From positions 136,001-200,000 of the forward strand of contig OZ244188.1 in NCBI GenBank assembly GCA_965216635.1: a stretch of DNA of 64,000 nt, written 5' to 3'. The stretch is from a bacterium (GTDB lineage: Bacteria > SAR324 > XYD2-FULL-50-16 > G965216635). Positions 11,954-58,561 of this stretch are shown here, piece after piece. Under the pieces are notes generated by a model. The model made no database searches, was not told the origin of the DNA, and saw only the letters and a program-made list of their open reading frames with translations. Each line of letters begins with the position of its first letter. Position 1 is the first letter of the stretch. A program made the translations under genes and the position numbers.

Positions 11954-12040
11954 TTTTTATTTTTTTGGGGCGCGTCAGTCCAGTTAGCAGTTGGTGGGTT
12001 GGTTGTGACTATATTGCAACTTTTAAAAACTGCGAGTTAA
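11954..12040 (+). pseudogene. 3' remnant of a Bdr-like gene (encodes FLFFWGASVQLAVGGLVVTILQLLKTAS*) directly upstream of the OMP array
   Basis: Manual translation; matches the C-terminal TM cassette of the Bdr-like paralogs (…LLFWGVSVQLAVGGLVVTILQFLQN). Confidence 0.6.
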
Positions 12041-12237
12041 AATTTTTTTTTGCTTTTCGTGAAAACAAAAAAAACACAAAGCTCTCACTAAAAATAAACC
12101 CTTGCATTAAGTTATATTTTGGCTAAACTAGGAAAATGTTAAAAAAAAATAAAGAATTATTTTTTTTTGTTTGCTTTTAATTTTTTTTCAGTTATATTTC
12201 TATTTTTACCTTCTTCTAACCTTTATTAAATATTATT

Positions 12238-13491
12238 ATGCAAGAAGTAACAAAAAGGGCGTTAAATAGCTCTCTTAAAAATTGTGAGACAAAATTAGCT
12301 CAATTTAACCAACGGGCTGGTTTTCAACGGGCGAGTTTTCGTGGAGCGTTATTGCTAGGTGCGGTTTTGTTGAGTTTGCTATTTGTAGGTAATCTGCAAG
12401 CACAGAGCAGCGTTAGCACAAAACAGGGATTTTTCGCGGGTATTGTCTATCTACAAGGATTCGGAGTAGATACCACAAAAACTAGCACAAGCTCTGCTAC
12501 TGGCTATGAAATCACTGGCTATGGAGAGGCAACCACTGGAATAGATTTAACTGGTGGAAATCCTAACTGGCCTACTGCAACAGCAACTGGAATGAGAGCT
12601 TTACTAAAAGCAAACTGTGAAACAGGAATAACGAGGATTACACAAACAGATGGAAATTACTTTTTCCCCGTGAGTACCTTTAGCTCTTTTAATGAGATTA
12701 AGGATGCTACTGTAACATCCCTAGACAGTGTTACTGGAGTTCGATTTAGAAATGGAAAAGACCCAAGTGAAGACTCCCATTGTCGTAGGCATTTTTACGG
12801 TGATCTTTCCTCTGGAAGAACCGCTATTAATTTTTCTGCCTATGAGATAGCGACTCCAGATTCGCTTTCAAAATCCCCTCTCCCCAGCACAGAGAGCGAC
12901 GCACTCAACGGTGTCGGTCTGCAAGTCGGCTGGCGAGGAGAAAAATGGAGAGCCTCCTTGACTCACTTTACTGGCAAGGGTGGAGCTAACGAGCTCGTCA
13001 ATACAGTGGTGATGGCGGAGTATTTTTTTCACGAGGAGTTTTTTGCAGGAGGCGGTCTAGCGAGTATGAAGCTTACCAATGGCTCTACTAGTGCTTCGGC
13101 TACTAGTCCCGTGTTAACGGTAGGCTATAAGGAGAACTTAACTCCCAACCTATTCTTTAATATTAGCTTGACGAAGTATATCTCGGGGGTTTCTCTGAGC
13201 CGTTCTGCTCCAGCTTCTGCTCCGATTCCCACTGGCAGAACTTTTAGCGAAACACAGACTGCACGCGGTGATTCAGCCTTTCTTGGAGGCCTAGTTTATA
13301 TAAATGACAGGGGAAGTGCATTTAAATTCAGTTATGATGTTGGTGCTATTGTAGATAGCAGAATAGAAGTAACCCAAGTCCGCACAAGAGATGTGGAAAT
13401 ACAAGAAGTTGAAATTCCAGCAGCGGAGAAAATTGAAGCTGAAATCAAAGCCCCCGTAGTCGTCAGCATTTCCCTGCTTTGGCGCTTTTAA
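12238..13491 (+). CDS. Paralogous outer-membrane beta-barrel protein, copy 1 (conserved N-terminal MQEVTKRALNSSLKNCETK extension, hydrophobic signal-like segment, C-terminal …VVVSISLLWRF)
   Basis: C-terminal aromatic-X-Phe OMP signature, alternating beta-strand pattern, 5-member paralog family with shared upstream region. Confidence 0.6.
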   Translation: MQEVTKRALNSSLKNCETKLAQFNQRAGFQRASFRGALLLGAVLLSLLFVGNLQAQSSVSTKQGFFAGIVYLQGFGVDTTKTSTSSATGYEITGYGEATTGIDLTGGNPNWPTATATGMRALLKANCETGITRITQTDGNYFFPVSTFSSFNEIKDATVTSLDSVTGVRFRNGKDPSEDSHCRRHFYGDLSSGRTAINFSAYEIATPDSLSKSPLPSTESDALNGVGLQVGWRGEKWRASLTHFTGKGGANELVNTVVMAEYFFHEEFFAGGGLASMKLTNGSTSASATSPVLTVGYKENLTPNLFFNISLTKYISGVSLSRSAPASAPIPTGRTFSETQTARGDSAFLGGLVYINDRGSAFKFSYDVGAIVDSRIEVTQVRTRDVEIQEVEIPAAEKIEAEIKAPVVVSISLLWRF

Positions 13492-13597
13492 CAGAGTTGT
13501 TGAAAAAAATGCAAAATTCTTTTTTTTTGTTTGCTTTTAATTTTTTTTCAGTTATATTTCTAATTTTAATCTCTTCTAACTTTTATTAAATATTATT

Positions 13598-14902
13598 ATG
13601 CAAGAAGTAACAAAAAGAGCGTTAAAAACACCTCTTAAAAATTGTGAGACAAAAGTAGCCCAATTTAATCAACGGGCTGGTTTTCAATGGGCTGGTTTTC
13701 AATGGGCTGGTTTTCAATGGGCTGGCTTCAAATGGAATGGCGTTGTATTGCTAGGTGCGATTTTGTTGAGTTTGCTATTTGTAGGTAATCTGCAAGCACA
13801 GAGCAGCGTTAGCACAAAACAGGGATTTTTCGCGGGTATTGTTTATCTACAAGGATTCGGAGTAGATACCACAAAAACTAGCACAAGCTCTGCTACTGGC
13901 TATGAAATCACTGGCTATTCAAACGACGAAACTAGAATAGACGCAACAGGTGGGAATATTTATTTGAATAAGATAGTACTAACTAGCATCAGAGTTTTAT
14001 TCAAAGAAAACTGTGAAGCAGGAACAACGAGTATTACACAAACAGGTGGAGATGCAAATTCAAATGGAAATTACTATTTTGCCTCGAAGCACTTCAGCTC
14101 TTTTAATGAGATTAAGGATGCTACTGAAACAGCCAAGGGAGGCACTATTGTTGAAACTGGATTTAGAAATGGAACAGTGGCAACTCATGACTCCTATTGT
14201 CGCAGGTACTTTTACGGAGATCTTTCCTCTGGAAGAACCACTATTAGTTTTTCTGCCTATGAGATAGCGACTCCAGATTCGCCTTCAAAACCCCCCGTCA
14301 CCAGCACAGAGAGCGACGCACTCAACGGTGTCGGTCTGCAAGTCGGCTGGCGAGGAGAAAAATGGAGAGCCTCTCTGACTCACTTTACTGGCAAGGGTGG
14401 AGCTAACGAGCTCGTCAATACAGTGGTGATGGCGGAGTATTTTTTTCACGAGGAGTTTTTTGCAGGAGGCGGTCTAGCGAGTATGAAACTTACCAATGGA
14501 TCTACTAGCGCCTCGGCTACTAGTCCCGTGTTAACGGTAGGCTATAAGGAGAACTTAACTCCCAACCTATTCTTTAATATTAGCTTGACGAAGTATATCT
14601 CGGGTATTTCTCTGAGCCGTTCTACTAATCCAGCTCAGATTCCCACTGGCGCCCCTCTTATAAGAAAAACACAGACTAAAGATGGTGATACAGTGTACAT
14701 TGGAGGAATAGTTGAGAGGAATGAAGCACGGTTTCGATATAGCTCCGCATTAGAAAGTGTGTCAGATTCCAGAATAGAAGCAACCCAAGTCCGTAGCCGA
14801 GATGTGGAAATACAACAAGTCACAACTCCAGCAGCGCAGAAGATAGAAGCCGAAATCAAAGCCCCCGTAGTCGTCAGCATTTCCCTGCTGTGGCGCTTTT
14901 AA
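13598..14902 (+). CDS. Paralogous outer-membrane beta-barrel protein, copy 2 (4 copies of GFQWA pentapeptide repeat in N-terminal extension)
   Basis: As copy 1; 15-bp in-frame tandem repeat GCTGGTTTTCAATGG. Confidence 0.6.
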   Translation: MQEVTKRALKTPLKNCETKVAQFNQRAGFQWAGFQWAGFQWAGFKWNGVVLLGAILLSLLFVGNLQAQSSVSTKQGFFAGIVYLQGFGVDTTKTSTSSATGYEITGYSNDETRIDATGGNIYLNKIVLTSIRVLFKENCEAGTTSITQTGGDANSNGNYYFASKHFSSFNEIKDATETAKGGTIVETGFRNGTVATHDSYCRRYFYGDLSSGRTTISFSAYEIATPDSPSKPPVTSTESDALNGVGLQVGWRGEKWRASLTHFTGKGGANELVNTVVMAEYFFHEEFFAGGGLASMKLTNGSTSASATSPVLTVGYKENLTPNLFFNISLTKYISGISLSRSTNPAQIPTGAPLIRKTQTKDGDTVYIGGIVERNEARFRYSSALESVSDSRIEATQVRSRDVEIQQVTTPAAQKIEAEIKAPVVVSISLLWRF

Positions 14903-15009
14903 CAGAATTGTTGAAAAAAATGCAAAATTCTTTTTTTTTATTTTCTTTTTTATTTTTTTTCAGTTATATTTCTATTTTTACCTTCTTCTAACCTTTATTA
15001 AATATTATT

Positions 15010-16353
15010 ATGCAAGAAGTAACAAAAAGGGCGTTAAAAACACCTCTTAAAAATTGTGAGACAAAAGTAGCTCAGGCTGGTTTTCAATGGGCTAACCAAT
15101 GGGCTAATCAACGGGCTGGTTTTCAATGGGCTAATCAACGGGCTGGATTCCAATGGAATGGCGTTGTATTGCTAGGTGCGGTTTTGTTGAGTTTGCTATT
15201 TGTAGGTAATCTGCAAGCACAGAGCCCCAATGGAAACACAAAACAGGGATTTTTCGCGGGTATTGTTTATCTACAAGGATTCGGAGTAGATACCACAAAA
15301 ACTAGCACAAGCTCTGCTACTGGCTATGAAATCACTGGCTATTCAAATGACGAAACTAGAATAGACGCAACCTCTGGATTGTCTTATTGGGATACCCCAG
15401 CGGGGACGACAGCCGGAATTGGAGCTAGAGCTTTAATAGCGGCAAACTGTGAACGTGATGCAACAAATACTACATATCTAGGTGAAAATTATTATCTTCC
15501 AAGAAATTTCTATTTCTTCGATTCTTTTGATCCTGGTGCGAAACAGTCTTTAGCTGATATTAATAGTTCAATGAATGATGCTACTGTTACTTTTAATGAC
15601 GACACTATTTCTAGTAGAATCTTTCGTTCAGGATTGGTAGCTGGAGAAACATCCTATTGTAAAACTTACTTTGATAGCCTTCCCCAAATTAATTTTTCTG
15701 CCTATGATGTAACTCCAGATTCGCCTTCAAAACCCCCCGTCACCAGCACAGAGAGCAACGCACTCAACGGTGTTGGTCTGCAATTCGGCTGGCGAGGAGA
15801 AAAATGGAGAGCCTCCTTGACTCACTTTACTGGCAAAGGTGGAGCTAACGAGCTCGTCAATACAGTGGTGATGGCGGAGTATTTTTTTCACGAGGAGTTT
15901 TTTGTAGGAGGCGGTCTAGCGAGTATGAAGCTTACCAATGGCTCTACTAGCGCCTCGGCTACTAGTCCCGTGATCACGGTAGGCTATAAGGAGAACTTAA
16001 CTCCCAACCTATTCTTTAATATTAGCTTGACAAAGTATATCTCGGGTATTTCTCTGAGCCGTTCTACTAGTCCTACAGCTACTAACAAAACTTTTACCCG
16101 CACACAGACTGAACGCGGTAAAGATAGTCATAAAGCAACGATTGGTAGCAGAATCACAGTTCCTGCTAATCGGCAAAGCGGGGTAGGCGCTATTTTTCAA
16201 CAAGCAGCAGGTCCTGATAATAGAATAGAAGTAACCCAATTCCGCAGCAGAGATGTGGAAATAGAAGAAGTCACAACTCCAGCAACGCAGAAGATAGAAG
16301 CTGAAATCAAAGCCCCCGTAGTCGTCAGCATTTCCCTGCTGTGGCGCTTTTAA
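15010..16353 (+). CDS. Paralogous outer-membrane beta-barrel protein, copy 3 (mixed GFQWA/NQWA/NQRA repeats)
   Basis: As copy 1. Confidence 0.6.
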   Translation: MQEVTKRALKTPLKNCETKVAQAGFQWANQWANQRAGFQWANQRAGFQWNGVVLLGAVLLSLLFVGNLQAQSPNGNTKQGFFAGIVYLQGFGVDTTKTSTSSATGYEITGYSNDETRIDATSGLSYWDTPAGTTAGIGARALIAANCERDATNTTYLGENYYLPRNFYFFDSFDPGAKQSLADINSSMNDATVTFNDDTISSRIFRSGLVAGETSYCKTYFDSLPQINFSAYDVTPDSPSKPPVTSTESNALNGVGLQFGWRGEKWRASLTHFTGKGGANELVNTVVMAEYFFHEEFFVGGGLASMKLTNGSTSASATSPVITVGYKENLTPNLFFNISLTKYISGISLSRSTSPTATNKTFTRTQTERGKDSHKATIGSRITVPANRQSGVGAIFQQAAGPDNRIEVTQFRSRDVEIEEVTTPATQKIEAEIKAPVVVSISLLWRF

Positions 16354-16383
16354 TAGAGTTGTGTAGGCACCGAATCACCTAAA

Positions 16384-16521
16384 CTTTTGAATTTGCATTC
16401 TGTTTAGCCTATGCAGCGTTAAAAAAAAATTTTAACTCTTGAAATATTACATATATTCCTGCGAGCTAAAATTTTTTTTTGCCTTGCCTAGCCGTCACAT
16501 AACGCAAATTCAAAGGTCTAT
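16384..16521. mobile_element. MITE-like element inserted in the loop of the post-OMP3 hairpin (GGCACCGAATCACCTAAAC | element | ACCTAAACTCGGTGCC), with an apparent 8-bp duplication ACCTAAAC
   Basis: The uninterrupted version of the same hairpin exists on the other strand near 57005-57035; element body is >90% identical to the 59556-59699 copy. Confidence 0.65.
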
Positions 16522-16805
16522 TACCTAAACTCGGTGCCATTCAAAAAACCACCTCCCCGCCAAACCGCATCCCCTCCAAAAACACCTAAAAAAACAAAAT
16601 TGCAGGGACATTTTTTTTGCTTTTCGTGAAAACAAAAAAAACACAAAGCTCTCACTAAAAATAAACCCTTGCATTAAGTTATATTTTGGCTAAACTAGGA
16701 AAATTTTAAAAAAAGATAAAAAGTTATGTTTTTTTTGTTTGCTTTTAATTTTTTTTCAGTTATATTTCTATTTTTACCTTCTTCTAACCTTTATTAAATA
16801 TTATT

Positions 16806-18089
16806 ATGCAAGAAGTAACAAAAAGGGCGTTAAATAGCTCTCTTAAAAATTGTGAGACAAAAGTAGCTCAGGCTGGTTTTCAATGGGCTAATCAACGGGC
16901 TGGATTCCAATGGAATGGCGTTGTATTGCTAGGTGCGGTTTTGTTGAGTTTGCTATTTGTAGGTAATCTGAAAGCACAAACCCAAAATGGTTCCAATGGA
17001 AGCACAAAACAGGGATTTTTCGCTGGTATTGTCTATCTACAAGGATTCGGAGTAGATACCACAAAAAGCAGCACAAACTCTGCTACTGGCTATAGAATCA
17101 AATATTCAAACGATATTACTGGAATAGACGCAACAGGTGGGAATCATACGTTGAGCCCTTTACTTTTACTAACTAGCATCAGAGCTTTATTCAAAGAAAA
17201 CTGTGAAGAAGGAACAACGAATTTTACACAAACGGGTGGACAAGCAAATTCAAATGGAAATTACTATTTTACCAGGGATTACTTCGTATCTTTTAATGAG
17301 ATTAAGGATGCTACTGTAATAGAATTTGTAGACCCTATTGCTCGAACTAGATTTAACAATGGAAAAGTGGTAACTCATGACTCCTATTGTCGCAGGTACT
17401 TTTACGGTGATCTTTCCTCCACTAGAACCCCTATTAATCTTCCTGATCCTGATGTGACTGCAGATTCGCTTTCAAAACCCCCCGTCACCAGCACAGAGAG
17501 CGATGCACTCAACGGTATCGGTCTGCAAGTCGGCTGGCGAGGGGAAAAATGGAGAGCCTCTCTGACTCACTTCACTGGCAAAGGTGGAGCTAACGAGCTC
17601 GCCAATACAGTGGTAATGGCGGATTATTTTTTTCACGAGAAATTTTTTGCAGGAGGCGGTCTAGCGAGTATGAAGCTTACCAATGGTTCAACTAGCGCCT
17701 CGGCTACTAGCCCCGTGGTTCAAGTAGGCTATAAGGAAAACTTAACTCCCAACCTATTCTTTAATATTAGCTTGACAAAGTATATCTCGGGTATTTCTCT
17801 GAGCCGTTCTACTAATCCAGCTCCGATTCCCACTGGCGCCCCTCTTATTAGAAAAACACAGACTAAAGATGGTGATACAGTATTCATTGGAGGAACAGTT
17901 ACTAGAATTGACAGGTCGAATCAATATAACTCCTTATTTAGCAGTGTGTTAGATTCCAGAATAGAAGTAACCCAAGTCCGCAGCCGAGATGTGGAAATAC
18001 AACAAGTCACAACTCCAGCAGCGCAGAAGATAGAAGCCGAAATCAAAGCCCCCGTAGTCGTCAGCATTTCCCTGCTTTGGCGCTTTTAA
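16806..18089 (+). CDS. Paralogous outer-membrane beta-barrel protein, copy 4
   Basis: As copy 1; shares about 270-bp upstream region with copy 1. Confidence 0.6.
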   Translation: MQEVTKRALNSSLKNCETKVAQAGFQWANQRAGFQWNGVVLLGAVLLSLLFVGNLKAQTQNGSNGSTKQGFFAGIVYLQGFGVDTTKSSTNSATGYRIKYSNDITGIDATGGNHTLSPLLLLTSIRALFKENCEEGTTNFTQTGGQANSNGNYYFTRDYFVSFNEIKDATVIEFVDPIARTRFNNGKVVTHDSYCRRYFYGDLSSTRTPINLPDPDVTADSLSKPPVTSTESDALNGIGLQVGWRGEKWRASLTHFTGKGGANELANTVVMADYFFHEKFFAGGGLASMKLTNGSTSASATSPVVQVGYKENLTPNLFFNISLTKYISGISLSRSTNPAPIPTGAPLIRKTQTKDGDTVFIGGTVTRIDRSNQYNSLFSSVLDSRIEVTQVRSRDVEIQQVTTPAAQKIEAEIKAPVVVSISLLWRF

Positions 18090-18396
18090 CAGAAAAAAAC
18101 CTACAATGGATGTTGCAAAGCATAACATGTAGAGACGCCCTACACGGGCGTCTTATATGATGTGCATAAACCACAAAAAAAACTATTTTAATAAAAGTTC
18201 TGAATTTATGAGACGCTCGTATAGAGCGTCTCTACAGACCTACATAAAATAAAAAATAACGCCCCGCATTTCCCCAAACATCTTCTTAAGAACGGGGACA
18301 CATTTTTACCCAAAATGGTTGAATAAGCAAAAAATAACGTTCCCGCAAAAACACCTAAAAAACAAAATTGCAGTGGGCATTTTTTTAATTTTGCCC

Positions 18397-18402
18397 TATA
18401 AT
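18397..18402 (+). promoter_or_regulatory. Putative -10 box (TATAAT) of the Bdr-like array promoter, inside the conserved module CAAAATTGCAGNGGNCATTTTTTTAATTTTNCCCTATAATCTTTTTATTTT
   Basis: Module conserved (reverse-complemented) upstream of the two minus-strand Bdr-like transcription units at about 55625-55690 and 56890-56945. Confidence 0.35.
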
Positions 18403-18500
18403 CTTTTTATTTTTTGGGGCTTGACTTCACTAGAATAGTTTGCTAAAATAAAACAACCAAAATAAAATGTTAAGAAAAATAAAATGTTAAGAAAAATAAA

Positions 18501-19022
18501 ATGTTAAGAACAACTACCGCACAAAAATTTACTTCTACTAAAATCTACGATCTTTTGATTGGACTAGGTGCAGAAAAAAAGAGCGCAGAGATTGCTATTG
18601 GAGAGTTTGTAGAACTGGTCCCAAAAGCTTTGGCTTCTAGTACAACAGAAACTGGTTTGGATACCACTCTTCCTACGGACAAAGGGGATATCTGGAGATT
18701 AGAATCCATCATTTCAGACAACAAAAGCGATACAGACATAAAACTGAAAGAAATTGAGAAGGAAATAGTAAAAATCAAAAGCAACCTAAAAGAAACTATA
18801 GCAAAAACCAAAAGCGACCTAAAAGAAACTATAGCAAAAATCGAAAGCAACTTAAAAGAAACTATAGCAAAAAACAAAAGCGATACCGATTTAAAAATAG
18901 AAATGATGAGAACAGAAGCAGAAAAAAACAAAAACGCTCTATTGATTATAGGAATTTCAACACAGCTAGCAGTTGGTGGGCTGGTTGTGGCTGTATTACA
19001 GCTTTTAAAAGTTTTGACTTAA
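18501..19022 (+). CDS. Bdr-like / DUF1640-like small coiled-coil membrane protein (173 aa; C-terminal cassette …LQLLKVLT)
   Basis: Conserved N-domain MLRTTTAQKFTSTKIYDLLIGLGAEKK…, 11-aa (33-bp) tandem repeats KSDLKETIAKx, C-terminal TM helix; architecture parallels Borrelia Bdr proteins. Confidence 0.55.
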   Translation: MLRTTTAQKFTSTKIYDLLIGLGAEKKSAEIAIGEFVELVPKALASSTTETGLDTTLPTDKGDIWRLESIISDNKSDTDIKLKEIEKEIVKIKSNLKETIAKTKSDLKETIAKIESNLKETIAKNKSDTDLKIEMMRTEAEKNKNALLIIGISTQLAVGGLVVAVLQLLKVLT

Positions 19023-19110
19023 TAAAGTAGCAGAAAAGTTTAGCTTATCTGCAAAATGTATTTTGGCGAGGGGATATTTTTTGGGGGCATTGACTTTAAA
19101 AGGAGAATTT

Positions 19111-19180
19111 GCCAAAATAAGTTTGCCAAAATAAGTTTGCCAAAATAAGTTTGCCAAAATAAGTTTGCCAAAATAAGTTT
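19111..19180. repeat. 14-bp tandem repeat GCCAAAATAAGTTT x5 in the promoter region of the second Bdr-like transcription unit (downstream of TTGACT at 19090)
   Basis: Seen directly; the same repeat is present in 2 copies at 20439-20466 upstream of the next unit. Confidence 0.8.
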
Positions 19181-19251
19181 GATTGCTATGATCTTTTTAG
19201 GTAGAATTTATAAAAATAAAACAACCAGCTATAAAAACCTTTAAAAATAAA

Positions 19252-19788
19252 ATGTTAAGAACAACTACAGCACAAAAATTTACTTCTACTAAAATCTACG
19301 ATCTTTTGATTGGACTAGGTGCAGAAAAAAAGAGCGCAGAGATTGCTATTGGAGAGTTTGTAGAACTGGTCCCAAAAGCTTTGGCTTCTAGTACAACAGA
19401 AAATGGTTTGGATGTCACTCTTCCTACGGACAAAGGGGATATCTGGAGATTGGAATCCATCATTTCAGACAACAAGAACGATACAGACAGAATAATAACA
19501 GAGAACAGAAACGACCTAGAAAGAATAATAACAGACAATAAAAATGATACAGACCTAAAACTGAAAGATATTGAGAGTAAAATCGTAAAAACCAAAAGCG
19601 ACTTGATAAGAATAATAACAGACAATAAAAATGATACAGACCTGAAATTTAAGGATATAGATTTAAAAATAGAAAGGATGAGAACAGAAGTAGAAAAAAA
19701 CAAAAACGCTCTATTGATTATAGGAATTTCAACACAGCTAGCAGTTGGTGGGCTGGTTGTGGCTATTTTACAATTTTTACAAAACTAA
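19252..19788 (+). CDS. Bdr-like small coiled-coil membrane protein (178 aa; C-terminal cassette …AILQFLQN)
   Basis: Paralog family as above. Confidence 0.55.
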   Translation: MLRTTTAQKFTSTKIYDLLIGLGAEKKSAEIAIGEFVELVPKALASSTTENGLDVTLPTDKGDIWRLESIISDNKNDTDRIITENRNDLERIITDNKNDTDLKLKDIESKIVKTKSDLIRIITDNKNDTDLKFKDIDLKIERMRTEVEKNKNALLIIGISTQLAVGGLVVAILQFLQN

Positions 19789-19795
19789 AAATAAA

Positions 19796-20350
19796 ATGTT
19801 AAGAACAGCTACGACACAAAAATTTACTTCTACCAAAATCTACGATCTTTTGATTGGACTAGGTGCAGAAAAAAAGAAAGCAGAGATTGCTATTGGAGAG
19901 TTTGTAGAACTGAGACCAAAAGCTTTGGCTTCTAGTACAACAGAAACGGGTTTGGATACCACTCTTCCTACGGACAAAGGGGATATCTGGAGATTGGAAT
20001 CTATCATTTCAGAGAACAAGAACGATACAGATATAAAACTGAAAGATATTGAGAGTAAAATCGTAGAAACCAAAAGCGACCTAGAAAAAACTATAGCAAA
20101 AACCAAAAGCGACCTAGAAAAAACTATAGCAAAAATCGAAAGCAACCTAAAAGAAACTATAGCAAAAATCGAAAGCAACTTAAAAGAAACTATAGCAAAA
20201 AATAAAAGCGATACCGATTTAAAAATAGAAATGATGAGAACAGAAGTAGAAAAAAACAAAAACGCTTTATTGATTATAGGAATTTCAACACAGCTAGCAG
20301 TTGGTGGGCTGGTTGTGGCTGCATTACAGCTTTTAAAAGTTTTGACTTAA
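19796..20350 (+). CDS. Bdr-like small coiled-coil membrane protein (184 aa from MLRTATTQ; ORF-track start 19745 is an extension into the upstream gene). Separated by only 7 bp from the upstream paralog
   Basis: Paralog family as above. Confidence 0.55.
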   Translation: MLRTATTQKFTSTKIYDLLIGLGAEKKKAEIAIGEFVELRPKALASSTTETGLDTTLPTDKGDIWRLESIISENKNDTDIKLKDIESKIVETKSDLEKTIAKTKSDLEKTIAKIESNLKETIAKIESNLKETIAKNKSDTDLKIEMMRTEVEKNKNALLIIGISTQLAVGGLVVAALQLLKVLT

Positions 20351-20438
20351 TAAAGTAGCAGAAAAGTTTAGCTTATCTGCAAAATGTATTTTGGTGAGGG
20401 GATATTTTTTTGGGGCATTGACTTTAAAAGGAGAATTT

Positions 20439-20466
20439 GCCAAAATAAGTTTGCCAAAATAAGTTT
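20439..20466. repeat. 14-bp tandem repeat GCCAAAATAAGTTT x2 (same promoter context as 19111-19180)
   Basis: Seen directly. Confidence 0.8.
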
Positions 20467-20536
20467 GATTGCTATGATGTTTTTAGTAGAATTTATAAAA
20501 ATAAAACAACCAAAATAAAAACTTTTAAAAAATAAA

Positions 20537-21106
20537 ATGTTAAGAACAACTACAGCACAAAACTTTACTTCTACTAAAATCTACGATCTTTTGATTGGAC
20601 TAGGTGCAGAAAAAAAGAAAGCAGAGATTGCTATTGGAGAGTTTGTAGAACTGAGACCAAAAGCTTTGGCTTCTAGTACAACAGAAACTGGTTTGGATGT
20701 CACTCTTCCTACGGACAAAGGGGATATCTGGAGATTGGAATCTATCATTTCAGAGAACAAGAACGATACAGATATAAAACTGAAAGATATTGAGAGTAAA
20801 ATCGTAGAAACCAAAAGTAACCTAGAAAAAATAATAACAGAAAACAGAAACGACCTAGAAAAAATAATAACAAAAAACAGAAACGACCTAGAAAAAATAA
20901 TAACAGACAACAGAAACGACCTAGAAAGAATAATAACAGACAATAAAAATGATACAGACCTGAAATTTAAGGATATAGATTTAAAAATAGAAAGGATGAG
21001 AACAGAAGTAGAAAAAAACAAAAACGCTCTGTTATTCTGGGGTGTGACAGCCCAGCTGACTATTGGTGGGTTGGTTGTGACTATACTACAATTTTTACAA
21101 AACTAA
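20537..21106 (+). CDS. Bdr-like small coiled-coil membrane protein (189 aa; C-terminal cassette …LLFWGVTAQLTIGGLVVTILQFLQN)
   Basis: Paralog family as above. Confidence 0.55.
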   Translation: MLRTTTAQNFTSTKIYDLLIGLGAEKKKAEIAIGEFVELRPKALASSTTETGLDVTLPTDKGDIWRLESIISENKNDTDIKLKDIESKIVETKSNLEKIITENRNDLEKIITKNRNDLEKIITDNRNDLERIITDNKNDTDLKFKDIDLKIERMRTEVEKNKNALLFWGVTAQLTIGGLVVTILQFLQN

Positions 21107-21113
21107 AAATAAA

Positions 21114-21617
21114 ATGTTAAGAACAACTACAGCACAAAACTTTACTTCTACTAAAATCTACGATCTTTTGATTGGACTAGGTGCGGAAAAAAAGAAAGCA
21201 GAGATTGCTATTGGAGAGTTTGTAGAACTGAGACCAAAAGCTTTGGCTTCTAGTGCAGCAAAAACGGGTTTGGATACCACTCTTCCTACGGACAAAGGGG
21301 ATATCTGGAGATTGGAATCTATCATTTCAGAGAACAAGAACGATACAGATATAAAACTGAAAGATATTGAGAGTAAAATCGTAGAAACCAAAAGTAACCT
21401 AGAAAGAATAATAACAGACAACAGAAACGATCTAGAAAGAATAATAACAGACAATAAAAATGATACAGACCTGAAATTTAAGGATATAGATTTAAAAATA
21501 GAAAGGATGAGAACAGAAGTAGAAAAAAACAAAAACGCTCTATTGATTATAGGAATTTCAACACAGCTAGCAGTTGGTGGGCTGGTTGTGACTATACTAC
21601 AATTTTTACAAAACTAG
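21114..21617 (+). CDS. Bdr-like small coiled-coil membrane protein (167 aa)
   Basis: Paralog family as above. Confidence 0.55.
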   Translation: MLRTTTAQNFTSTKIYDLLIGLGAEKKKAEIAIGEFVELRPKALASSAAKTGLDTTLPTDKGDIWRLESIISENKNDTDIKLKDIESKIVETKSNLERIITDNRNDLERIITDNKNDTDLKFKDIDLKIERMRTEVEKNKNALLIIGISTQLAVGGLVVTILQFLQN

Positions 21618-22065
21618 AGACCTTTATTAGCGTTCTGTTTAGCCTATGCAGCGTTGAAAAATTTTTTTAACTCTTGAAATATCACACATATTCCAGCGAG
21701 CTAAAAAAATTTTTCGCCTTGCCTAGCCGTCACATAACACTAATACAAAACTCTCACTAAAAATAGGACCTTTATTAGCGTTCTGTTTAGCCAAAACAAG
21801 CTTATTGCTTGAAACTATTTATGGGCTATAGAAAAAGTGCCTTTTGGCACTTTTTCATTTCTTTTTTGGAGTATGCAAAGTTTGTAGTGCCCTGATCCCA
21901 TTATTGTGGCACTACGCCATTGAAAAATTTTTTTAACTCTTGAAATATCACACATATTCCAGCGAGCTAAAAAAATTTTTCGCACCTGTTCTAACCATTT
22001 GGCTAGCCGTCTTAAGAACAACTACAGCACAAACTCTCACTAAAAATAAGACCTTTGCGGGATTT
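21615..22065. mobile_element. Cluster of degenerate/partial MITE-like copies (two internal segments …AACTCTTGAAATATCACACATATTCCAGCGAGCTAAAAAAATTTTTCGC…), interleaved with a fragment of a Bdr-like gene start (CTTAAGAACAACTACAGCACAAA at about 22012-22034)
   Basis: Direct comparison with the full copies at 16384 and 59556 and with the Bdr-like 5' ends (ATGTTAAGAACAACTACAGCACAAAA). Confidence 0.5.
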
Positions 22066-36517: not shown

Positions 36518-36632
36518 TTTTTATGAAAGGTAATGTGAAAATTTTTATTTAAAATAATATTTCAACTCTGATAGTGGGATTTGCCCATTTACAAAGTTCA
36601 TTGAAGTTTGTTCTCGGGTGCTTAAGTCTTTA

Positions 36633-48334: not shown

Positions 48335-48339
48335 AATCT

Positions 48340-51609: not shown

Positions 51610-51652
51610 GTTTATTTTTTTAAACTCTTCAATTATCTCCCCAATAAAAAAA

Positions 51653-52672: not shown

Positions 52673-52701
52673 CTGTAATTTGCTGAATTAGACATTCTAT
52701 T

Positions 52702-52775: not shown

Positions 52776-52872
52776 ATGCCTGATTTTATTTGTGGGAGGG
52801 GATGCAGTTTTTAGGTGGTTTTTGGTGGGGATACGGTTTTTTGATGGGTTTTGACGCGGAGGTATTTTATGT

Positions 52873-53451
52873 TTATGCTGCCACTTTTAAAAATTGTAAC
52901 AATCCAAATATTATAACAATCAATATACCCGTGCTGGTTAGAGTAGTCGCAATAACCCATTTGATTATATGAACTCTACTTTCTGATATTTTTAACTCAA
53001 GGTCGCTTTTGATTTTTGCTATAGTTTCTTTTAGGTTGCTTTTGGTTTCTACGATTTTACTCTCAATATCTTTCAGTTTTAGGTCTGTATCATTTTTATT
53101 GTCTGTTATTATTTTTTCTAGGTCGTTTCTGTTTTTTGTTATTATTTTTTCTAGGTCGTTTCTGTTTTTTGTTATTATTTTTTCTGTATCGTTTTTGTTG
53201 TCTGCTATTATTCTTATCAAGTCGTTTTTGTTCTCTGAAATGATGGATTCCAATCTCCAGATATCGCCTTTGTCCGTAGGAAGAGTGGTATCCAAACCCG
53301 TTTCTGTTGTACTAGAAGCCAAAGCTTTTGGGACCAGTTCTACAAACTCTCCAATAGCAATCTCTGCGCTCTTTTTTTCTGCACCTAGTCCAATCAAAAG
53401 ATCGTAGATTTTAGTAGAAGTAAATTTTTGTGCTGTAGTTGTTCTTAACAT
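52873..53451 (-). CDS. Bdr-like small coiled-coil membrane protein (192 aa; third C-terminal cassette …ESRVHIIKWVIATTLTSTGILIVIIFGLLQFLKVAA)
   Basis: Paralog family; N-domain identical to cluster-1 genes. Confidence 0.55.
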   Translation of the reverse strand: MLRTTTAQKFTSTKIYDLLIGLGAEKKSAEIAIGEFVELVPKALASSTTETGLDTTLPTDKGDIWRLESIISENKNDLIRIIADNKNDTEKIITKNRNDLEKIITKNRNDLEKIITDNKNDTDLKLKDIESKIVETKSNLKETIAKIKSDLELKISESRVHIIKWVIATTLTSTGILIVIIFGLLQFLKVAA

Positions 53452-53458
53452 TTTATTT

Positions 53459-53962
53459 TTAGTTTTGTAAAAATTGCAGTATAGTCACAACCAACCCACC
53501 AACTGCTAACTGGACTGACACACCCCAAAATAATAAAGAGTTTTTATTTTTTTCTGCTTCTGTTCTCATCCTTTCTATTTTTAAATCTATATCCTTAAAT
53601 TTCAGGTCTGTATCGCTTTTGATTTTTGCTATAGTTTCTTTTAGGTCGCTTTTGTTTTTTTCTGCTTCTGTTCTCATCTTTTCTATTTTCAAATCGGTAT
53701 CGTTTTTGTTGTCTGCTATTATTCTTATCAAGTCGTTTTTGTTCTCTGAAATGATGGATTCCAATCTCCAGATATCGCCTTTGTCCGTAGGAAGAGTGGT
53801 ATCCAAACCAGTTTCTGTTGTACTAGAAGCCAAAGCTTTTGGGACCAGTTCTACAAACTCTCCAATAGCAATCTCTGCGCTCTTTTTCTCCGCACCTAGT
53901 CCAATCAAAAGATCGTAGATTTTAGTAGAAGTAAATTTTTGTGCTGTAGTTGTTCTTAACAT
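53459..53962 (-). CDS. Bdr-like small coiled-coil membrane protein (167 aa)
   Basis: Paralog family; identical protein to 54502-55005. Confidence 0.55.
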   Translation of the reverse strand: MLRTTTAQKFTSTKIYDLLIGLGAEKKSAEIAIGEFVELVPKALASSTTETGLDTTLPTDKGDIWRLESIISENKNDLIRIIADNKNDTDLKIEKMRTEAEKNKSDLKETIAKIKSDTDLKFKDIDLKIERMRTEAEKNKNSLLFWGVSVQLAVGGLVVTILQFLQN

Positions 53963-53969
53963 TTTATTT

Positions 53970-54494
53970 TTAGTTTTGTAAAAATTGCAATATAGTCACA
54001 ACCAACCCACCAACTGCTAACTGGACTGACACACCCCAAAATAATAAAGAGTTTTTATTTTTTTCTGCTTCTGTTCTCATCCTTTCTATTTTTAAATCTA
54101 TATCCTTAAATTTCAGGTCTGTATCGCTTTTGATTTTTGCTATAGTTTCTTTTAGTTCGCTTTTGTTTTTTTCTGCTTCTGTTCTCATCTTTTCTATTTT
54201 CAAATCGGTATCGCTTTTGCTTTCTATTATTTTTCCCTCAATTTCTTTCAGTTTTATGTCTGTATCGTTTTTGTTCTCTGAAATGATGGATTCCAATCTC
54301 CAGATATCGCCTTTGTCCGTAGGAAGAGTGGTATCCAAACCAGTTTCTGTTGTACTAGAAGCCAAAGCTTTTGGGACCAGTTCTACAAACTCTCCAATAG
54401 CAATCTCTGCGCTCTTTTTTTCTGCACCTAGTCCAATCAAAAGATCGTAGATTTTAGTAGAAGTAAATTTTTGTGCTGTAGTTGTTCTTAACAT
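53970..54494 (-). CDS. Bdr-like small coiled-coil membrane protein (174 aa)
   Basis: Paralog family; 1-aa difference from 55013-55537. Confidence 0.55.
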   Translation of the reverse strand: MLRTTTAQKFTSTKIYDLLIGLGAEKKSAEIAIGEFVELVPKALASSTTETGLDTTLPTDKGDIWRLESIISENKNDTDIKLKEIEGKIIESKSDTDLKIEKMRTEAEKNKSELKETIAKIKSDTDLKFKDIDLKIERMRTEAEKNKNSLLFWGVSVQLAVGGLVVTILQFLQN

Positions 54495-54501
54495 TTTATT
54501 T

Positions 54502-55005
54502 TTAGTTTTGTAAAAATTGCAGTATAGTCACAACCAACCCACCAACTGCTAACTGGACTGACACACCCCAAAATAATAAAGAGTTTTTATTTTTTTCTGC
54601 TTCTGTTCTCATCCTTTCTATTTTTAAATCTATATCCTTAAATTTCAGGTCTGTATCGCTTTTGATTTTTGCTATAGTTTCTTTTAGGTCGCTTTTGTTT
54701 TTTTCTGCTTCTGTTCTCATCTTTTCTATTTTCAAATCGGTATCGTTTTTGTTGTCTGCTATTATTCTTATCAAGTCGTTTTTGTTCTCTGAAATGATGG
54801 ATTCCAATCTCCAGATATCGCCTTTGTCCGTAGGAAGAGTGGTATCCAAACCAGTTTCTGTTGTACTAGAAGCCAAAGCTTTTGGGACCAGTTCTACAAA
54901 CTCTCCAATAGCAATCTCTGCGCTCTTTTTTTCTGCACCTAGTCCAATCAAAAGATCGTAGATTTTAGTAGAAGTAAATTTTTGTGCTGTAGTTGTTCTT
55001 AACAT
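54502..55005 (-). CDS. Bdr-like small coiled-coil membrane protein (167 aa)
   Basis: Paralog family. Confidence 0.55.
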   Translation of the reverse strand: MLRTTTAQKFTSTKIYDLLIGLGAEKKSAEIAIGEFVELVPKALASSTTETGLDTTLPTDKGDIWRLESIISENKNDLIRIIADNKNDTDLKIEKMRTEAEKNKSDLKETIAKIKSDTDLKFKDIDLKIERMRTEAEKNKNSLLFWGVSVQLAVGGLVVTILQFLQN

Positions 55006-55012
55006 TTTATTT

Positions 55013-55537
55013 TTAGTTTTGTAAAAATTGCAGTATAGTCACAACCAACCCACCAACTGCTAACTGGACTGACACACCCCAAAATAATAAAGAGTTTTTA
55101 TTTTTTTCTGCTTCTGTTCTCATCCTTTCTATTTTTAAATCTATATCCTTAAATTTCAGGTCTGTATCGCTTTTGATTTTTGCTATAGTTTCTTTTAGTT
55201 CGCTTTTGTTTTTTTCTGCTTCTGTTCTCATTTTTTCTATTTTCAAATCGGTATCGCTTTTGCTTTCTATTATTTTTCCCTCAATTTCTTTCAGTTTTAT
55301 GTCTGTATCGTTTTTGTTCTCTGAAATGATGGATTCCAATCTCCAGATATCCCCTTTGTCCGTAGGAAGAGTGGTATCCAAACCAGTTTCTGTTGTACTA
55401 GAAGCCAAAGCTTTTGGGACCAGTTCTACAAACTCTCCAATAGCAATCTCTGCGCTCTTTTTTTCTGCACCTAGTCCAATCAAAAGATCGTAGATTTTAG
55501 TAGAAGTAAATTTTTGTGCTGTAGCTGTTCTTAACAT
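55013..55537 (-). CDS. Bdr-like small coiled-coil membrane protein (174 aa)
   Basis: Paralog family. Confidence 0.55.
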   Translation of the reverse strand: MLRTATAQKFTSTKIYDLLIGLGAEKKSAEIAIGEFVELVPKALASSTTETGLDTTLPTDKGDIWRLESIISENKNDTDIKLKEIEGKIIESKSDTDLKIEKMRTEAEKNKSELKETIAKIKSDTDLKFKDIDLKIERMRTEAEKNKNSLLFWGVSVQLAVGGLVVTILQFLQN

Positions 55538-55631
55538 TTTACTTTTATAAGGTTTTTATTTTGGTTATTTTATTTGGTTGTTTTATTTTAGCAAACTATT
55601 CTACTAAAGTCAAGCCCAAAAAAATAAAAAG

Positions 55632-55637
55632 ATTATA
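55632..55637 (-). promoter_or_regulatory. Putative -10 box (TATAAT on minus strand) of the 5-gene Bdr-like transcription unit, inside the conserved promoter module
   Basis: Reverse complement of 55625-55690 matches the 18360-18410 module upstream of array 1. Confidence 0.35.
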
Positions 55638-55737
55638 GGGAAAAAATTAAAAAAATGTCCCCTGCAATTTTGTTTTTTAGTGGGTTTTGAGGGGGACGCA
55701 GTTTTTAGGTGGGTTTTGACGGGGAGGTATTTTATGT

Positions 55738-56238
55738 TTATGCTACCACTTTTAAGAATTGTAACAATCCAAATATTATAACAATCAATATACCCGTACT
55801 GGTTAGAGTAGTCGCAATAACCCATTTGATTATATGAACTCTACTTTCTGATATTTTTAACTCAAGGTCGCTTTTGATTTTTGCTATAGTTTCTTTTAGG
55901 TCGCTTTTGTTTTTTTCTGCTTCTGTTCTCATCTTTTCTATTTTCAAATCGGTATCGCTTTTGCTTTCTATTATTTTTCCCTCAATTTCTTTCAGTTTTA
56001 TGTCTGTATCGTTTTTGTTCTCTGAAATGATGGATTCCAATCTCCAGATATCCCCTTTGTCCGTAGGAAGAGTGGTATCCAAACCAGTTTCTGTTGTACT
56101 AGAAGCCAAAGCTTTTGGGACCAGTTCTACAAACTCTCCAATAGCAATCTCTGCGCTCTTTTTTTCTGCACCTAGTCCAATCAAAAGATCGTAGATTTTA
56201 GTAGAAGTAAAGTTTTGTGCTGTAGTTGTTCTTAACAT
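55738..56238 (-). CDS. Bdr-like small coiled-coil membrane protein (166 aa; third C-terminal cassette)
   Basis: Paralog family. Confidence 0.55.
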   Translation of the reverse strand: MLRTTTAQNFTSTKIYDLLIGLGAEKKSAEIAIGEFVELVPKALASSTTETGLDTTLPTDKGDIWRLESIISENKNDTDIKLKEIEGKIIESKSDTDLKIEKMRTEAEKNKSDLKETIAKIKSDLELKISESRVHIIKWVIATTLTSTGILIVIIFGLLQFLKVVA

Positions 56239-56245
56239 TTTACTT

Positions 56246-56803
56246 TTAGTTTTGTAAAAATTGCAATATAGTCACAACCAACCCACCAACTGCTAACTGG
56301 ACTGACACACCCCAAAATAATAAAGAGTTTTTATTTTTTTCTGCTTCTGTTCTCATCCTTTCTATTTTTAAATCTATATCCTTAAATTTCAGGTCTGTAT
56401 CGCTTTTGATTTTTGCTATAGTTTCTTTTAGGTTGCTTTCGATTTTTGCTATAGTTTCTTTTAGTTCGCTTTTGTTTTTTTCTGCTTCTGTTCTCATCTT
56501 TTCTATTTTCAAATCGGTATCGCTTTTGCTTTCTATTATTTTTCCCTCAATTTCTTTCAGTTTTATGTCTGTATCGCTTTTGTTGTCTGAAATGATGGCT
56601 TCCAATCTCCAGATATCCCCTTTGTCCGTAGGAAGAGTGGTATCCAAACCAGTTTCTGTTGTACTAGAAGCCAAAGCTTTTGGGACCAGTTCTACAAACT
56701 CTCCAATAGCGATCTCTGCTTTCTTTTTTTCTGCACCTAGTCCAATCAAAAGATCGTAGATTTTAGTAGAAGTAAATTTTTGTGCTGTAGTTGTTCTTAA
56801 CAT
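56246..56803 (-). CDS. Bdr-like small coiled-coil membrane protein (185 aa)
   Basis: Paralog family. Confidence 0.55.
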   Translation of the reverse strand: MLRTTTAQKFTSTKIYDLLIGLGAEKKKAEIAIGEFVELVPKALASSTTETGLDTTLPTDKGDIWRLEAIISDNKSDTDIKLKEIEGKIIESKSDTDLKIEKMRTEAEKNKSELKETIAKIESNLKETIAKIKSDTDLKFKDIDLKIERMRTEAEKNKNSLLFWGVSVQLAVGGLVVTILQFLQN

Positions 56804-56897
56804 TTTACTTTTATAAGGTTTTTATTTTGGTTATTTTATTTGGTTGTTTTATTTTAGCAAATTGTCCTATTAAAGTCAAGTTCTAAAAAATAAAAAG

Positions 56898-56903
56898 ATT
56901 ATA
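56898..56903 (-). promoter_or_regulatory. Putative -10 box (TATAAT on minus strand) of the 2-gene Bdr-like transcription unit, same conserved module
   Basis: Sequence conservation with 18360-18410 and 55625-55690. Confidence 0.35.
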
Positions 56904-57087
56904 GGGAAAAAATTAAAAAAATGTCCCCTGCAATTTTGTTTTTTTAGTGGGTTTTGGTGGGGAGGTGGTTTTTTGAGGGGCACCGAATTTAGGTGATTCG
57001 GTGCCTCTGCAGAATGTTATCAGTTTTTTGAGGGGCACCGAGAGTTCACTTCTTTTTTAGTGGATTTCTCGGTGCCTCTAAATTCTG

Positions 57088-58344
57088 TTAAAAGCGCCAC
57101 AGCAGGGAAATGCTGACGACTACGGGGGCTTTGATTTCGGCTTCTATCTTCTCCGTTGCTGGAGTTTCAACTTCTTGTATTTCCACATCTCTTGTGCCGA
57201 CTTGGGTTGCTTGTATTCTATTATCGTTTTCCTCGCTGAGGTACAGCAGACCTAATGTATTATATGTGCCACACGGCGAAATATTGCAAATACGCGTTCC
57301 TATCGTGACTGAATCACCACCTTCTCCGGACTGTGTTTCGCTAAAAGTTCTGCCAGTGGGAATCGGAGCAGAAACTGTACGGTTTAGAGAAATACCCGAG
57401 ATATACTTTGTCAAGCTAATATTAAAGAATAGGTTGGGAGTTAAGTTCTCCTTATAGCCTACCGTTAACACGGGACTAGTAGCCGAGGCGCTAGTTGAGC
57501 CATTGGTAAGCTTCATACTCGCTAGACCGCCTCCTGCAAAAAACTCCTCGTGAAAAAAATACTCCGCCATCACCACTGTATTGACGAGCTCGTTAGCTCC
57601 ACCCTTGCCAGTAAAGTGAGTCAGAGAGGCTCTCCATTTTTCTCCTCGCCAGCCGAATTGCAGACCGACACCGTTGAGTGCGTCGCTCTCTGTGCTAGTG
57701 ACGGGGGATTTTGAAAGCGAATCTGGAGTCGCTATCTCATAGGCAGAAAAACTAATAGTGGTTCTGTTGGAGGAATCATCACCGAAAAAATAGCTAAAAC
57801 AAACGGATGTTTTTTCGTCTTTACCATTATATATGTTACCTGGAGAGTCTGTAGTTCCTTCATTAGACGACTTTGTGCCTTCATTAAAGGATTGGAAACT
57901 ATCACTTCTAAAATAATAGTCTGTTCCCTTTGAATCAACAGATGCTTTGCCTTCTTTACAGGTTGCGGTCATTAAAGCGCTTATTCCAGCCATTACTGCT
58001 GGACTGTGAGACGATCTTATTTTAGTAATTTCTATTCCAATGGTTTCGTTTGAATAGGTTACTCCATAGCTAGTAGAAGAGCTTGTGCTAGTTTTTGTGG
58101 TATCTACTCCGAAACCTTGTAGATAGACAATACCAGCAAAAAATCCCTGTTTCGTGCTAGCGCTGCTCTGTGCTTGCAGATTACCTACAAATAACAAACT
58201 CAACAAAACCGCACCTAGCAATACAACGCCATTCCATTGGAAGCTAGCCCGTTGAAAACTCGCCCGTTGAAAACCTGCCTGAGCTACTTTTGTCTCACAA
58301 TTTTTAAGAGGTGTTTTTAACGTTCTTTTTGTTACTTCTTGCAT
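57088..58344 (-). CDS. Paralogous outer-membrane beta-barrel protein, copy 5 (minus-strand counterpart of the 12238-18089 family)
   Basis: Same N-terminal MQEVTKRTLKTPLKNCETKVAQ… extension with GFQRA/SFQRA repeats and C-terminal …VVVSISLLWRF; shares upstream region (58345-58460) with copies 1 and 4. Confidence 0.6.
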   Translation of the reverse strand: MQEVTKRTLKTPLKNCETKVAQAGFQRASFQRASFQWNGVVLLGAVLLSLLFVGNLQAQSSASTKQGFFAGIVYLQGFGVDTTKTSTSSSTSYGVTYSNETIGIEITKIRSSHSPAVMAGISALMTATCKEGKASVDSKGTDYYFRSDSFQSFNEGTKSSNEGTTDSPGNIYNGKDEKTSVCFSYFFGDDSSNRTTISFSAYEIATPDSLSKSPVTSTESDALNGVGLQFGWRGEKWRASLTHFTGKGGANELVNTVVMAEYFFHEEFFAGGGLASMKLTNGSTSASATSPVLTVGYKENLTPNLFFNISLTKYISGISLNRTVSAPIPTGRTFSETQSGEGGDSVTIGTRICNISPCGTYNTLGLLYLSEENDNRIQATQVGTRDVEIQEVETPATEKIEAEIKAPVVVSISLLWRF

Positions 58345-58561
58345 AATAATATTTAATAAAGATTAGAAGAGATTAAAATTAGAAATATAACTGAAAAAAA
58401 ATTAAAAGCAAACAAAAAAAACATAACTTTTTATCTTTTTTTAAAATTTTCCTAGTTTAGCCAAAATATAGCAGAAAAAAAATTTAAAAGCAAATAAAAA
58501 AAAAAGAATTTTTAAAATTGGCTTTTTGGGGCTGTTTTTTGGTTTTATTTGGGATTTTTTG

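Follow-up and report, generated by a model that had tools for sequence, protein, structure and literature searches.

Two Gene Arrays in Opposite Orientation Flank a Housekeeping-Rich Segment

We analyzed a 64,000-nucleotide (nt) stretch of the genome of a SAR324 bacterium (contig OZ244188.1 of assembly GCA_965216635.1; herein the window), in which two arrays of paralogous genes lie on either side of a 31.3-kb segment. Each array combines genes for putative outer-membrane proteins (OMPs) with genes for small, repeat-containing proteins (small genes). Block A (11956-21617, plus strand) comprises a gene remnant, four OMP genes (417 to 447 amino acids; aa) and five small genes (167 to 189 aa); block B (52873-58344, minus strand) comprises a single OMP gene (418 aa) and seven small genes (166 to 192 aa). 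Mapping of open reading frames and their translations reproduces the layout given in a preliminary description of the window, with OMP genes followed by small genes in the same relative order on opposite strands; the coordinates are collected in Table 1. The 91-nt remnant at the left edge of block A retains a transmembrane (TM) tail and a stop codon. In blastn alignments it is 89 to 93% identical, in inverted orientation, to the 3′ ends of small genes from block B and 79 to 88% identical, in direct orientation, to block A small genes; its translation, which ends in FWGASVQLAVGGLVVTILQLLKTAS followed by a stop, matches the tail of P0092, a paralog encoded outside the window. Judged from these alignments, the remnant is the 3′ end of a sixth small gene.

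The inverted homology between the blocks is real and cannot be a product of chance. Searched for repeats of 60 nt or more, the window yields 148 inverted pairs; one of 523 nt at 88% identity is the longest, with others of 441 nt (92%), 429 nt (94%) and 351 nt (96%). Inverted stretches common to the two blocks range from 290 to 523 nt in length and from 88 to 96% in identity. Exact inverted matches of at least 25 nt number 216 and reach 182 nt. Using blastn, positions 12113-13498 align with 58470-57081 over 1420 nt (81%), the small-gene arrays align across blocks over ∼1.1 kb at 81 to 82%, and whole genes align between blocks at 81 to 87%. With the exception of a ∼140-bp intergenic element, the repeats of the window are limited to 11956-21773 and 52807-58470.

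The homology extends to the flanks of the genes. Upstream of the OMP genes, a stretch of 91 nt is matched exactly between the blocks (16680-16770 versus 58470-58380), and a promoter-like motif, TTGACT-17-(T/C)AAAAT, is conserved in the leaders of five small-gene operons, where it probably acts as a promoter. Hairpins of the form GGCACCGA...TCGGTGCC follow OMP genes in both blocks; those of block B fold with a minimum free energy of −43 kcal/mol and a fold z-score of −8.3, and have no matches in dinucleotide shuffles. The preliminary description had the blocks sharing promoter modules and terminators: the sharing of both kinds of element holds, and the word terminator stays presumptive because the hairpins lack a U-tract. 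Their identification as canonical intrinsic terminators was dropped for the same reason.

The hairpin that follows OMP A3 is interrupted by a copy (16380-16522) of the ∼140-bp element, flanked there by an apparent CCTAAAC target duplication. This element is palindromic, resembles a miniature inverted-repeat transposable element (MITE) and has terminal inverted repeats TAGACTTTTGAATTTGCG; further copies lie at 21615-21750, 21920-22056, 29446-29544 and 59556-59700.

Table 1. Features of the two arrays and the segment between them (window coordinates; P numbers are handles for paralogs)
Feature	Position	Strand	Remarks
Small-gene 3′-end remnant (TM tail and stop), 91 nt	11956-12046	+	5′ of OMP A1; blastn
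OMP A1, 417 aa	12238-13491	+	identical to P0002
OMP A2, 434 aa	13598-14902	+	identical to P0004
OMP A3, 447 aa	15010-16353	+	identical to P0009
GGCACCGA...TCGGTGCC hairpin 3′ of OMP A3	16366-16545	+	split by ∼140-bp element (16380-16522)
OMP A4, 427 aa	16806-18089	+	identical to P0005
TTGACT-17-TAAAAT motif	18421-18449	+	5′ of small gene A1
Small gene A1, 173 aa	18501-19022	+	predicted tail-anchored coiled coil; identical to P0095
Related promoter-like motif copies	19090-19118, 20418-20446	+	
Small gene A2, 178 aa	19252-19788	+	identical to P0090
Small gene A3, 184 aa	19796-20350	+	identical to P0094; ATG 7 nt past A2 stop
Small gene A4, 189 aa	20537-21106	+	identical to P0086
Small gene A5, 167 aa	21114-21617	+	identical to P0089
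Intervening housekeeping-rich segment, 31.3 kb	21618-52872		
Small gene B7, 192 aa	52873-53451	-	identical to P0113; type III tail
Small gene B6, 167 aa	53459-53962	-	identical to P0083 and to B4
Small gene B5, 174 aa	53970-54494	-	identical to P0082
Small gene B4, 167 aa	54502-55005	-	identical to P0083
Small gene B3, 174 aa	55013-55537	-	identical to P0117
Related promoter-like motif copies	56879-56851, 55613-55585	-	
Small gene B2, 166 aa	55738-56238	-	identical to P0091; type III tail
Small gene B1, 185 aa	56246-56803	-	
Two intact GGCACCGA...TCGGTGCC hairpins 3′ of OMP B	56979-57005, 57034-57076	-	
OMP B, 418 aa	57088-58344	-	nearest paralog P0001 (81%, outside the window)
Conserved OMP upstream region, common to OMP A1-A4	58345-58470	-	blastn, exact matches

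The Large Genes Encode Predicted Outer-Membrane β-Barrels

The OMP proteins have no Pfam or NCBIfam family at E ≤ 1 and no PHROG match, and family profiles of the named OMP families (Helicobacter HP_OMP, OmpA, porins, FadL and autotransporters) do not match the window copies; in distant members of the family, a match to PF13505 lies below threshold. An AlphaFold2 (AF2) model of OMP B, built on 69 family members, is β-rich with ∼14 to 16 strands (mean predicted local distance difference test score [pLDDT] 78.8) and carries an α/β insert at approximately residues 109 through 214. All significant Foldseek matches of the model in the Protein Data Bank (PDB) are outer-membrane barrels (FadL, porins, OmpG, OmpA and OpcA); these matches are weak, with template-modeling scores (TM-scores) below 0.2, and therefore support the general OMP class alone.

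In alignments of the family, a hydrophobic, signal-peptide-like N-terminal stretch closes with LQAQ, and the last residue is invariably Phe. Every copy in the window has a start codon, this signal-peptide-like N terminus and the conserved upstream region. The window OMPs thus combine a modeled barrel fold, a signal-peptide-like N terminus and a C-terminal aromatic residue, the generic features of outer-membrane β-barrels; we accept the large genes as probable members of that class, within which no named family fits.

The N-region of the OMP signal peptides contains 15-nt in-frame repeats encoding AGFQW/ANQW units in two to five copies (12310-12340, 13669-13735 and 15084-15156), and other OMP paralogs have ARFVL or MQKTA units at the same position. 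Elsewhere in the window, positions 42576-43880 encode a 434-aa protein with no Pfam match and the C terminus ...GIKISF, which is perhaps a further outer-membrane barrel, of a family distinct from that of the arrays; its gene adjoins rplU in a relative too (64% identity).

The Small Proteins Share the Architecture of Bdr, Not Its Sequence

All 12 small proteins have a near-identical head of ∼75 residues, a center built of 11-residue units and one of three hydrophobic C-terminal tails. Tandem Repeats Finder (TRF) detects the central repeat, with a period of 33 nt and 2.5 to 4.4 copies, in six of the genes; the units fall into at least two types (KSDLKETIAKI-like and NRNDLEKIITD-like), which vary in number and kind between copies. 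The tails place ∼20 to 27 hydrophobic residues at the extreme C terminus, and there is no signal peptide; membrane anchoring by this tail is predicted. In a low-confidence AF2 model, two short helices and a linker precede one long helix, after which comes a TM helix (residues 147 through 173). Neither a Pfam model at threshold nor an NCBIfam model covers the family, and a PDB sequence search with the small-protein profile returned chance coiled-coil matches only.

The preliminary description called these proteins Bdr-like, after the Bdr proteins of Borrelia. At the level of architecture the comparison is apt. Bdr and the window proteins are both small (160 to 250 aa) with many paralogs per genome, both have a conserved N-terminal region of ∼45 to 75 aa followed by a variable number of 11-residue (33-bp) repeats, and both end in a hydrophobic anchor with almost no residues beyond it. 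Both also weakly match the phage protein families phrog_6701 and phrog_9415, possibly an effect of coiled-coil composition. At the level of sequence the likeness fails. Against the KID repeat of Pfam, PF02524 (cut-off 20.8), genuine Bdr from Borrelia burgdorferi B31 cp32-1 reaches 70.6 bits, whereas four window small proteins give no match to that model at E ≤ 1. Alignment of the family profile with Bdr using hhalign yields a probability of 6.3% and covers 22 TM columns only, and a tblastn search of 72,556 PLSDB plasmids (including Borreliella burgdorferi B31 cp32-1) at E ≤ 1 found no Borrelia match and no homolog. The NCBIfam search of the window proteins likewise returned no Bdr model. Genomic context differs as well: the window genes form chromosomal arrays beside OMP genes, among housekeeping genes, whereas Bdr genes reside on plasmids and prophages (bdr on cp32-1). 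Membership of the Bdr family was accordingly rejected, and on present sequence comparisons the small protein is a structural analogue of Bdr.

The small proteins also resemble the CCDC90-like/DUF1640 family (PF07798; MCUR1, CCDC90B and bacterial members), in which a coiled-coil stalk likewise leads into a TM helix at the C terminus. The best match is that of B7, in which residues 88 through 181 align with profile positions 83 through 171 of 175, and three paralogs carry a precomputed PF07798 match. B7 scores 26.2 bits (E = 8e-6) against a gathering threshold of 33.5; the alignment is confined to the compositionally simple stalk and TM helix, and the N-terminal domain is unmatched.

Each small gene lies either behind a conserved promoter-like leader or behind a 7-nt spacer after the preceding small gene. 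Some leaders carry short tandem repeats of their own: a perfect 14-bp repeat (TTTGCCAAAATAAG) lies within the promoter region of small gene A2 (5.3 copies, 19108-19181) and within that of A4 (2.3 copies, 20436-20467), and a perfect 17-bp repeat (3.1 copies, 18459-18510) takes in the start codon (ATG) of small gene A1 and generates short open reading frames ahead of it. These repeats may be regulatory or slippage-prone. Phase variation via the 14-bp repeat was considered and dropped; the last repeat always restores TTGCCA-16-TATGAT, and a change in copy number therefore need not switch expression.

Framework and Variable Segments Diverge to Different Degrees

The codon alignment of the OMP genes alternates between framework segments that are 90 to 100% identical, third positions included, and two variable segments that are 40 to 60% identical. 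Between blocks, synonymous divergence (dS) is 0.06 to 0.2 in the framework and 0.6 to 1.1 in the two variable regions, the latter values being inflated because the alignment there is uncertain. For OMP B and OMP A2 (Nei-Gojobori method), dS is 0.062 in framework 2, versus 0.73 and 0.85 in the variable regions. Frameworks have a ratio of nonsynonymous to synonymous divergence (dN/dS) of ∼0.2; in the variable parts the ratio comes close to 1, again subject to the uncertain alignment there. The nearest pair of genes changes from segment to segment: A3 and A4 in framework 1, A2 and B in framework 2, and A2 and A4 in framework 3 and both variable regions. When OMP B is compared with the other 12 copies of its subfamily, the framework is 85 to 98% identical and the variable regions ∼35%. 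Variable region 1 coincides with the modeled insert between strands, which by the usual topology of such barrels would face outward.

At the 5′ ends of the small genes 26 of 225 sites are variable, and all four site combinations (the four-gamete pattern) occur across blocks. Within block B, 53222-54504 and 54265-55547 are 99.4% identical over 1283 nt, a recent tandem duplication in which B3-B4 and B5-B6 are the two units. Taken together, the copies bear the marks of tandem amplification and of probable gene conversion among them. The exchange of sequence between the two loci that had been proposed at the outset is thus supported by the contrast in dS between framework and variable segments, by the switches of nearest copy and by the four site combinations.

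Both Families Are Expanded in One Genome and Restricted to Its Lineage

The source genome is a single contig of 2,394,643 bp, whose recorded proteins include exact matches to 10 of the 12 small proteins, to four of the five OMPs and to Pta. It encodes at least 47 OMP paralogs (43 distinct sequences and four divergent ones) and at least 25 small paralogs (the 12 of the window and 13 elsewhere). The 81 OMP matches are limited to this one NCBI genome and to contigs in the European Nucleotide Archive (ENA). An exhaustive HMMER search of 1.84 billion representatives found the OMP family in 122 clusters only. GTDB representative genomes contain no match to the OMP profile, and neither family profile matches JGI metagenomes. 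The relatives that carry the families are the ENA contigs and the metagenome-assembled genome (MAG) GCA_014238815.1; the six ENA contigs examined for OMP and small-gene matches all derive from sample ERZ26869290. By these searches, both families are lineage-restricted, and they are uncharacterized and greatly expanded in the source genome.

Housekeeping proteins of the window are 80 to 92% identical to those of the relative, while the small protein is 64% and the OMP 47 to 52% identical to the relative's copies; paralogs within one genome are far more alike, a further mark of recombination among copies. Two relative contigs (L091 and L092) carry one OMP gene with one small gene behind it on that strand, and two others (L002 and L003) carry a small gene followed by an OMP gene. 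These sites are not syntenic with the window, and the pairing of OMP and small gene is therefore older than the arrays; its conservation suggests a functional link between the two products.

One relative contig, L090, bears directly on the site of block B. It contains pta, a gene for a 198-aa lipoprotein (p198), dapA and mlaF in the order and orientation of the window, with no array between pta and dapA; no remnant of p198 was found in the window. In a second relative pta is followed by hom, and on a third relative contig idh is followed by a convergent OMP gene. Outside the lineage, the nearest Pta homologs belong to Bacteroidota MAGs (51 to 54%), and IDH is ∼70% identical to homologs from many phyla, with no synteny in common. 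Contigs L001, L090 and L092 (ENA ERZ26869290) are internally palindromic, with mirrored gene orders; such mirroring is typical of amplification or assembly chimeras, and adjacencies taken from these contigs need caution.

Origin of the Arrays

We consider it probable that A and B are two of several arrays of one two-gene module, shaped by tandem duplication and gene conversion, and that their opposite orientation is incidental. The module would consist of a gene for an outer-membrane β-barrel followed by a gene for a small protein that is conserved at its N terminus, repetitive in hendecads and anchored at its C terminus. Arrays of this module would grow by tandem duplication and unequal crossing-over. 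Homologous recombination (gene conversion) among copies of the same or of different arrays would preserve near-identity in the barrel framework, in the N-terminal domain and in the regulatory flanks; diversity would persist in two regions of the OMP and in how many 11-residue repeats, and of which type, a small protein contains. Such a process would probably supply many versions of envelope proteins whose variable parts are likely to be exposed at the surface; that the proteins sit in the membrane, that parts of them reach the surface and that diversity itself is under selection are what we infer at this step. Because the nearest paralogs of several window copies lie outside the window, the framework is shared by the other copies of the OMP B subfamily and the pta-dapA site of L090 is free of an array, we regard the arrays as probable lineage-specific insertions or expansions at variable sites. 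Several observations weigh against this account. L090 is itself a palindromic chimera, from a single sample, in which the dapA-p198-pta adjacency recurs wholly or partly. The structural assignments are generic for the OMP (TM-score below 0.2, predicted TM-score [pTM] 0.49) and of low confidence for the small protein (pLDDT 65), and the alignment of the variable regions is uncertain. The exchange between A and B may be direct or may run through third loci.

The preliminary description had read the locus as one large inverted duplication. A single segmental event followed by local gain and loss of genes would explain the shared relative gene order and the shared promoter-like and hairpin modules, but we judge it quite unlikely on several grounds. 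The blocks differ in copy number (four OMP and five small genes versus one and seven), and no unique flanking sequence is duplicated. OMP B is nearest to P0001 (81%) and OMP A3 to P0006 (74%), both outside the window, while OMPs of A and B are 62 to 67% identical to each other; the high-identity framework is common to the other 12 copies of the OMP B subfamily, which occupy several loci, and the remnant at the left end resembles the tail of a third-locus gene, P0092. To these are added the size of both families in the genome, the non-syntenic sites of the module in relatives and the array-free site in L090. That the mirror arrangement is unreal, arising from repeats misplaced or collapsed in assembly, is highly improbable. 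The 99.4% identical 1.28-kb tandem units of block B are beyond short-read resolution and would invite such an error, but copies in different blocks differ by 4 to 20%, each array sits within unique flanks, most of the encoded proteins are found exactly in the single-contig genome, and the linkage of the pta and dapA flanks is independently present in a relative. A broader proposal, in which the OMP and the small protein form a coupled envelope pair and the arrays, with occasional inversion of the 31-kb segment, reshuffle the two variable OMP regions and the 11-residue repeat cassettes and thereby vary the cell surface, as a Bdr-like system of independent origin outside Borrelia tied to a new OMP family, strikes us as rather unlikely.

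Inversion of the 31-kb segment between the arrays is a possibility and not a finding. Under the preferred account of several arrays of one module, the incidental opposite orientation would create a substrate for RecA-dependent inversion, and exact inverted matches of up to 182 nt do flank the segment. The minimal homology length required by RecA is far below 182 nt, and crossovers at homologous positions would leave the reading frames intact. An active system, in which the arrays recombine and flip the segment at appreciable frequency to produce chimeric OMP and small genes as a variation switch, is nevertheless unlikely. A Pfam scan of 20 flanking and intervening proteins, together with a reading of the remaining translations, revealed no recombinase or invertase gene in the window, and no short crossover sites were seen there; the segment holds ribosomal-protein and tRNA-synthetase genes. 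In the only informative comparison, the pta-array-dapA linkage of the window is collinear with the pta-dapA adjacency of L090, and the present orientation is therefore the shared one. Site-specific invertible elements such as shufflons and Hin/Gin-type systems differ from the window, where the homology consists of whole genes rather than short sites and no recombinase was found. Chromosomal inversions also occur between inverted rrn operons, insertion sequence (IS) copies and paralogous genes; like these, the window has long inverted homologies that bracket a segment, with exact matches beyond what RecA needs, but here the flank linkage is collinear with a relative and no inversion is in evidence. 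A replication-related logic for the strand arrangement was also considered and dropped, as GC skew tracks the strand of the genes and a window of this length does not allow an origin or terminus of replication to be placed.

Other Features of the Window

The intervening segment encodes two ATP-binding cassette (ABC) exporters, rsfS, recO, moaC, rplJ-rplL, tRNA-Leu, a leuA/cimA-like gene, an ATP-dependent ligase, GmrSD, hisS, rpmA, rplU, a peptidyl-prolyl isomerase (PPIase), sat/cysC, idh, the SocA pair, pheT and pta. An 83-bp sequence that duplicates the hisS 3′ end stands in direct repeat on both sides of the GmrSD-type restriction gene (36633-38285, minus strand), at 36551-36632 and 38361-38442, and resembles the footprint of an insertion. 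A SocA/Panacea-domain antitoxin gene and its 92-aa partner (47789-48618) lie directly 5′ of pheT, an arrangement kept in the relative contig L088.

Outside the arrays, xanthine-dehydrogenase-type genes are split: the iron-sulfur/flavin (FeS/FAD) subunit is encoded at 10313-11908 and the molybdenum cofactor (MoCo) subunit at 2415-4697, both on the minus strand, with a type III restriction-modification pair between them (mod, 7840-10308; res, 4808-7849). The MlaD-like gene at 60496-61842 contains a near-perfect 69-bp in-frame tandem duplication (60992-61140; 98.75%). Of 42 start codons in the window, one has a Shine-Dalgarno-like motif ahead of it, and the leaders are rich in A; with the Bacteroidota Pta homologs, this scarcity gives a weak taxonomic hint.

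Comparison with Other Systems of Surface-Protein Variation

Gene-converted families of paralogous OMPs include Hop/Bab/Sab of Helicobacter pylori, opa of Neisseria, tpr of Treponema and msp2/p44 of Anaplasma. The window OMPs resemble them in having many full-length paralogs with a near-identical framework or near-identical 5′ and 3′ parts around a hypervariable middle, and in the mosaic relationships of their copies, which occupy several loci in both orientations and diverge unevenly, as expected from gene conversion. They differ in having no homology to these families (no Pfam or NCBIfam match) and in being coupled to a co-amplified family of small proteins. Systems built from an expression site and silent cassettes (vls, pilE/pilS and msp2) differ in another respect: they combine one expressed locus with promoterless, truncated donor cassettes, whereas the five OMP genes and the 12 small genes of the window are all full-length, and the sole truncated copy is the 91-nt remnant.

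The mechanism is an ordinary one, paralog arrays of envelope genes under concerted evolution, here inverted. Inverted arrays of paralogs that exchange sequence are familiar in bacterial surface-protein loci, and a mirror duplication that might flip is likewise ordinary, and unproven here. What stands out is the investment of a 2.39-Mb genome in the two families: at least 47 genes for an OMP family that lacks a Pfam or NCBIfam model, and at least 25 genes for a small protein that independently repeats the architecture of Bdr, with its head, 11-residue repeats and tail anchor. To our knowledge, the function of Bdr in Borrelia is still open. If the OMP and the small protein cooperate in the envelope, this lineage would offer a second, unrelated case in which to ask what proteins of the Bdr type do.

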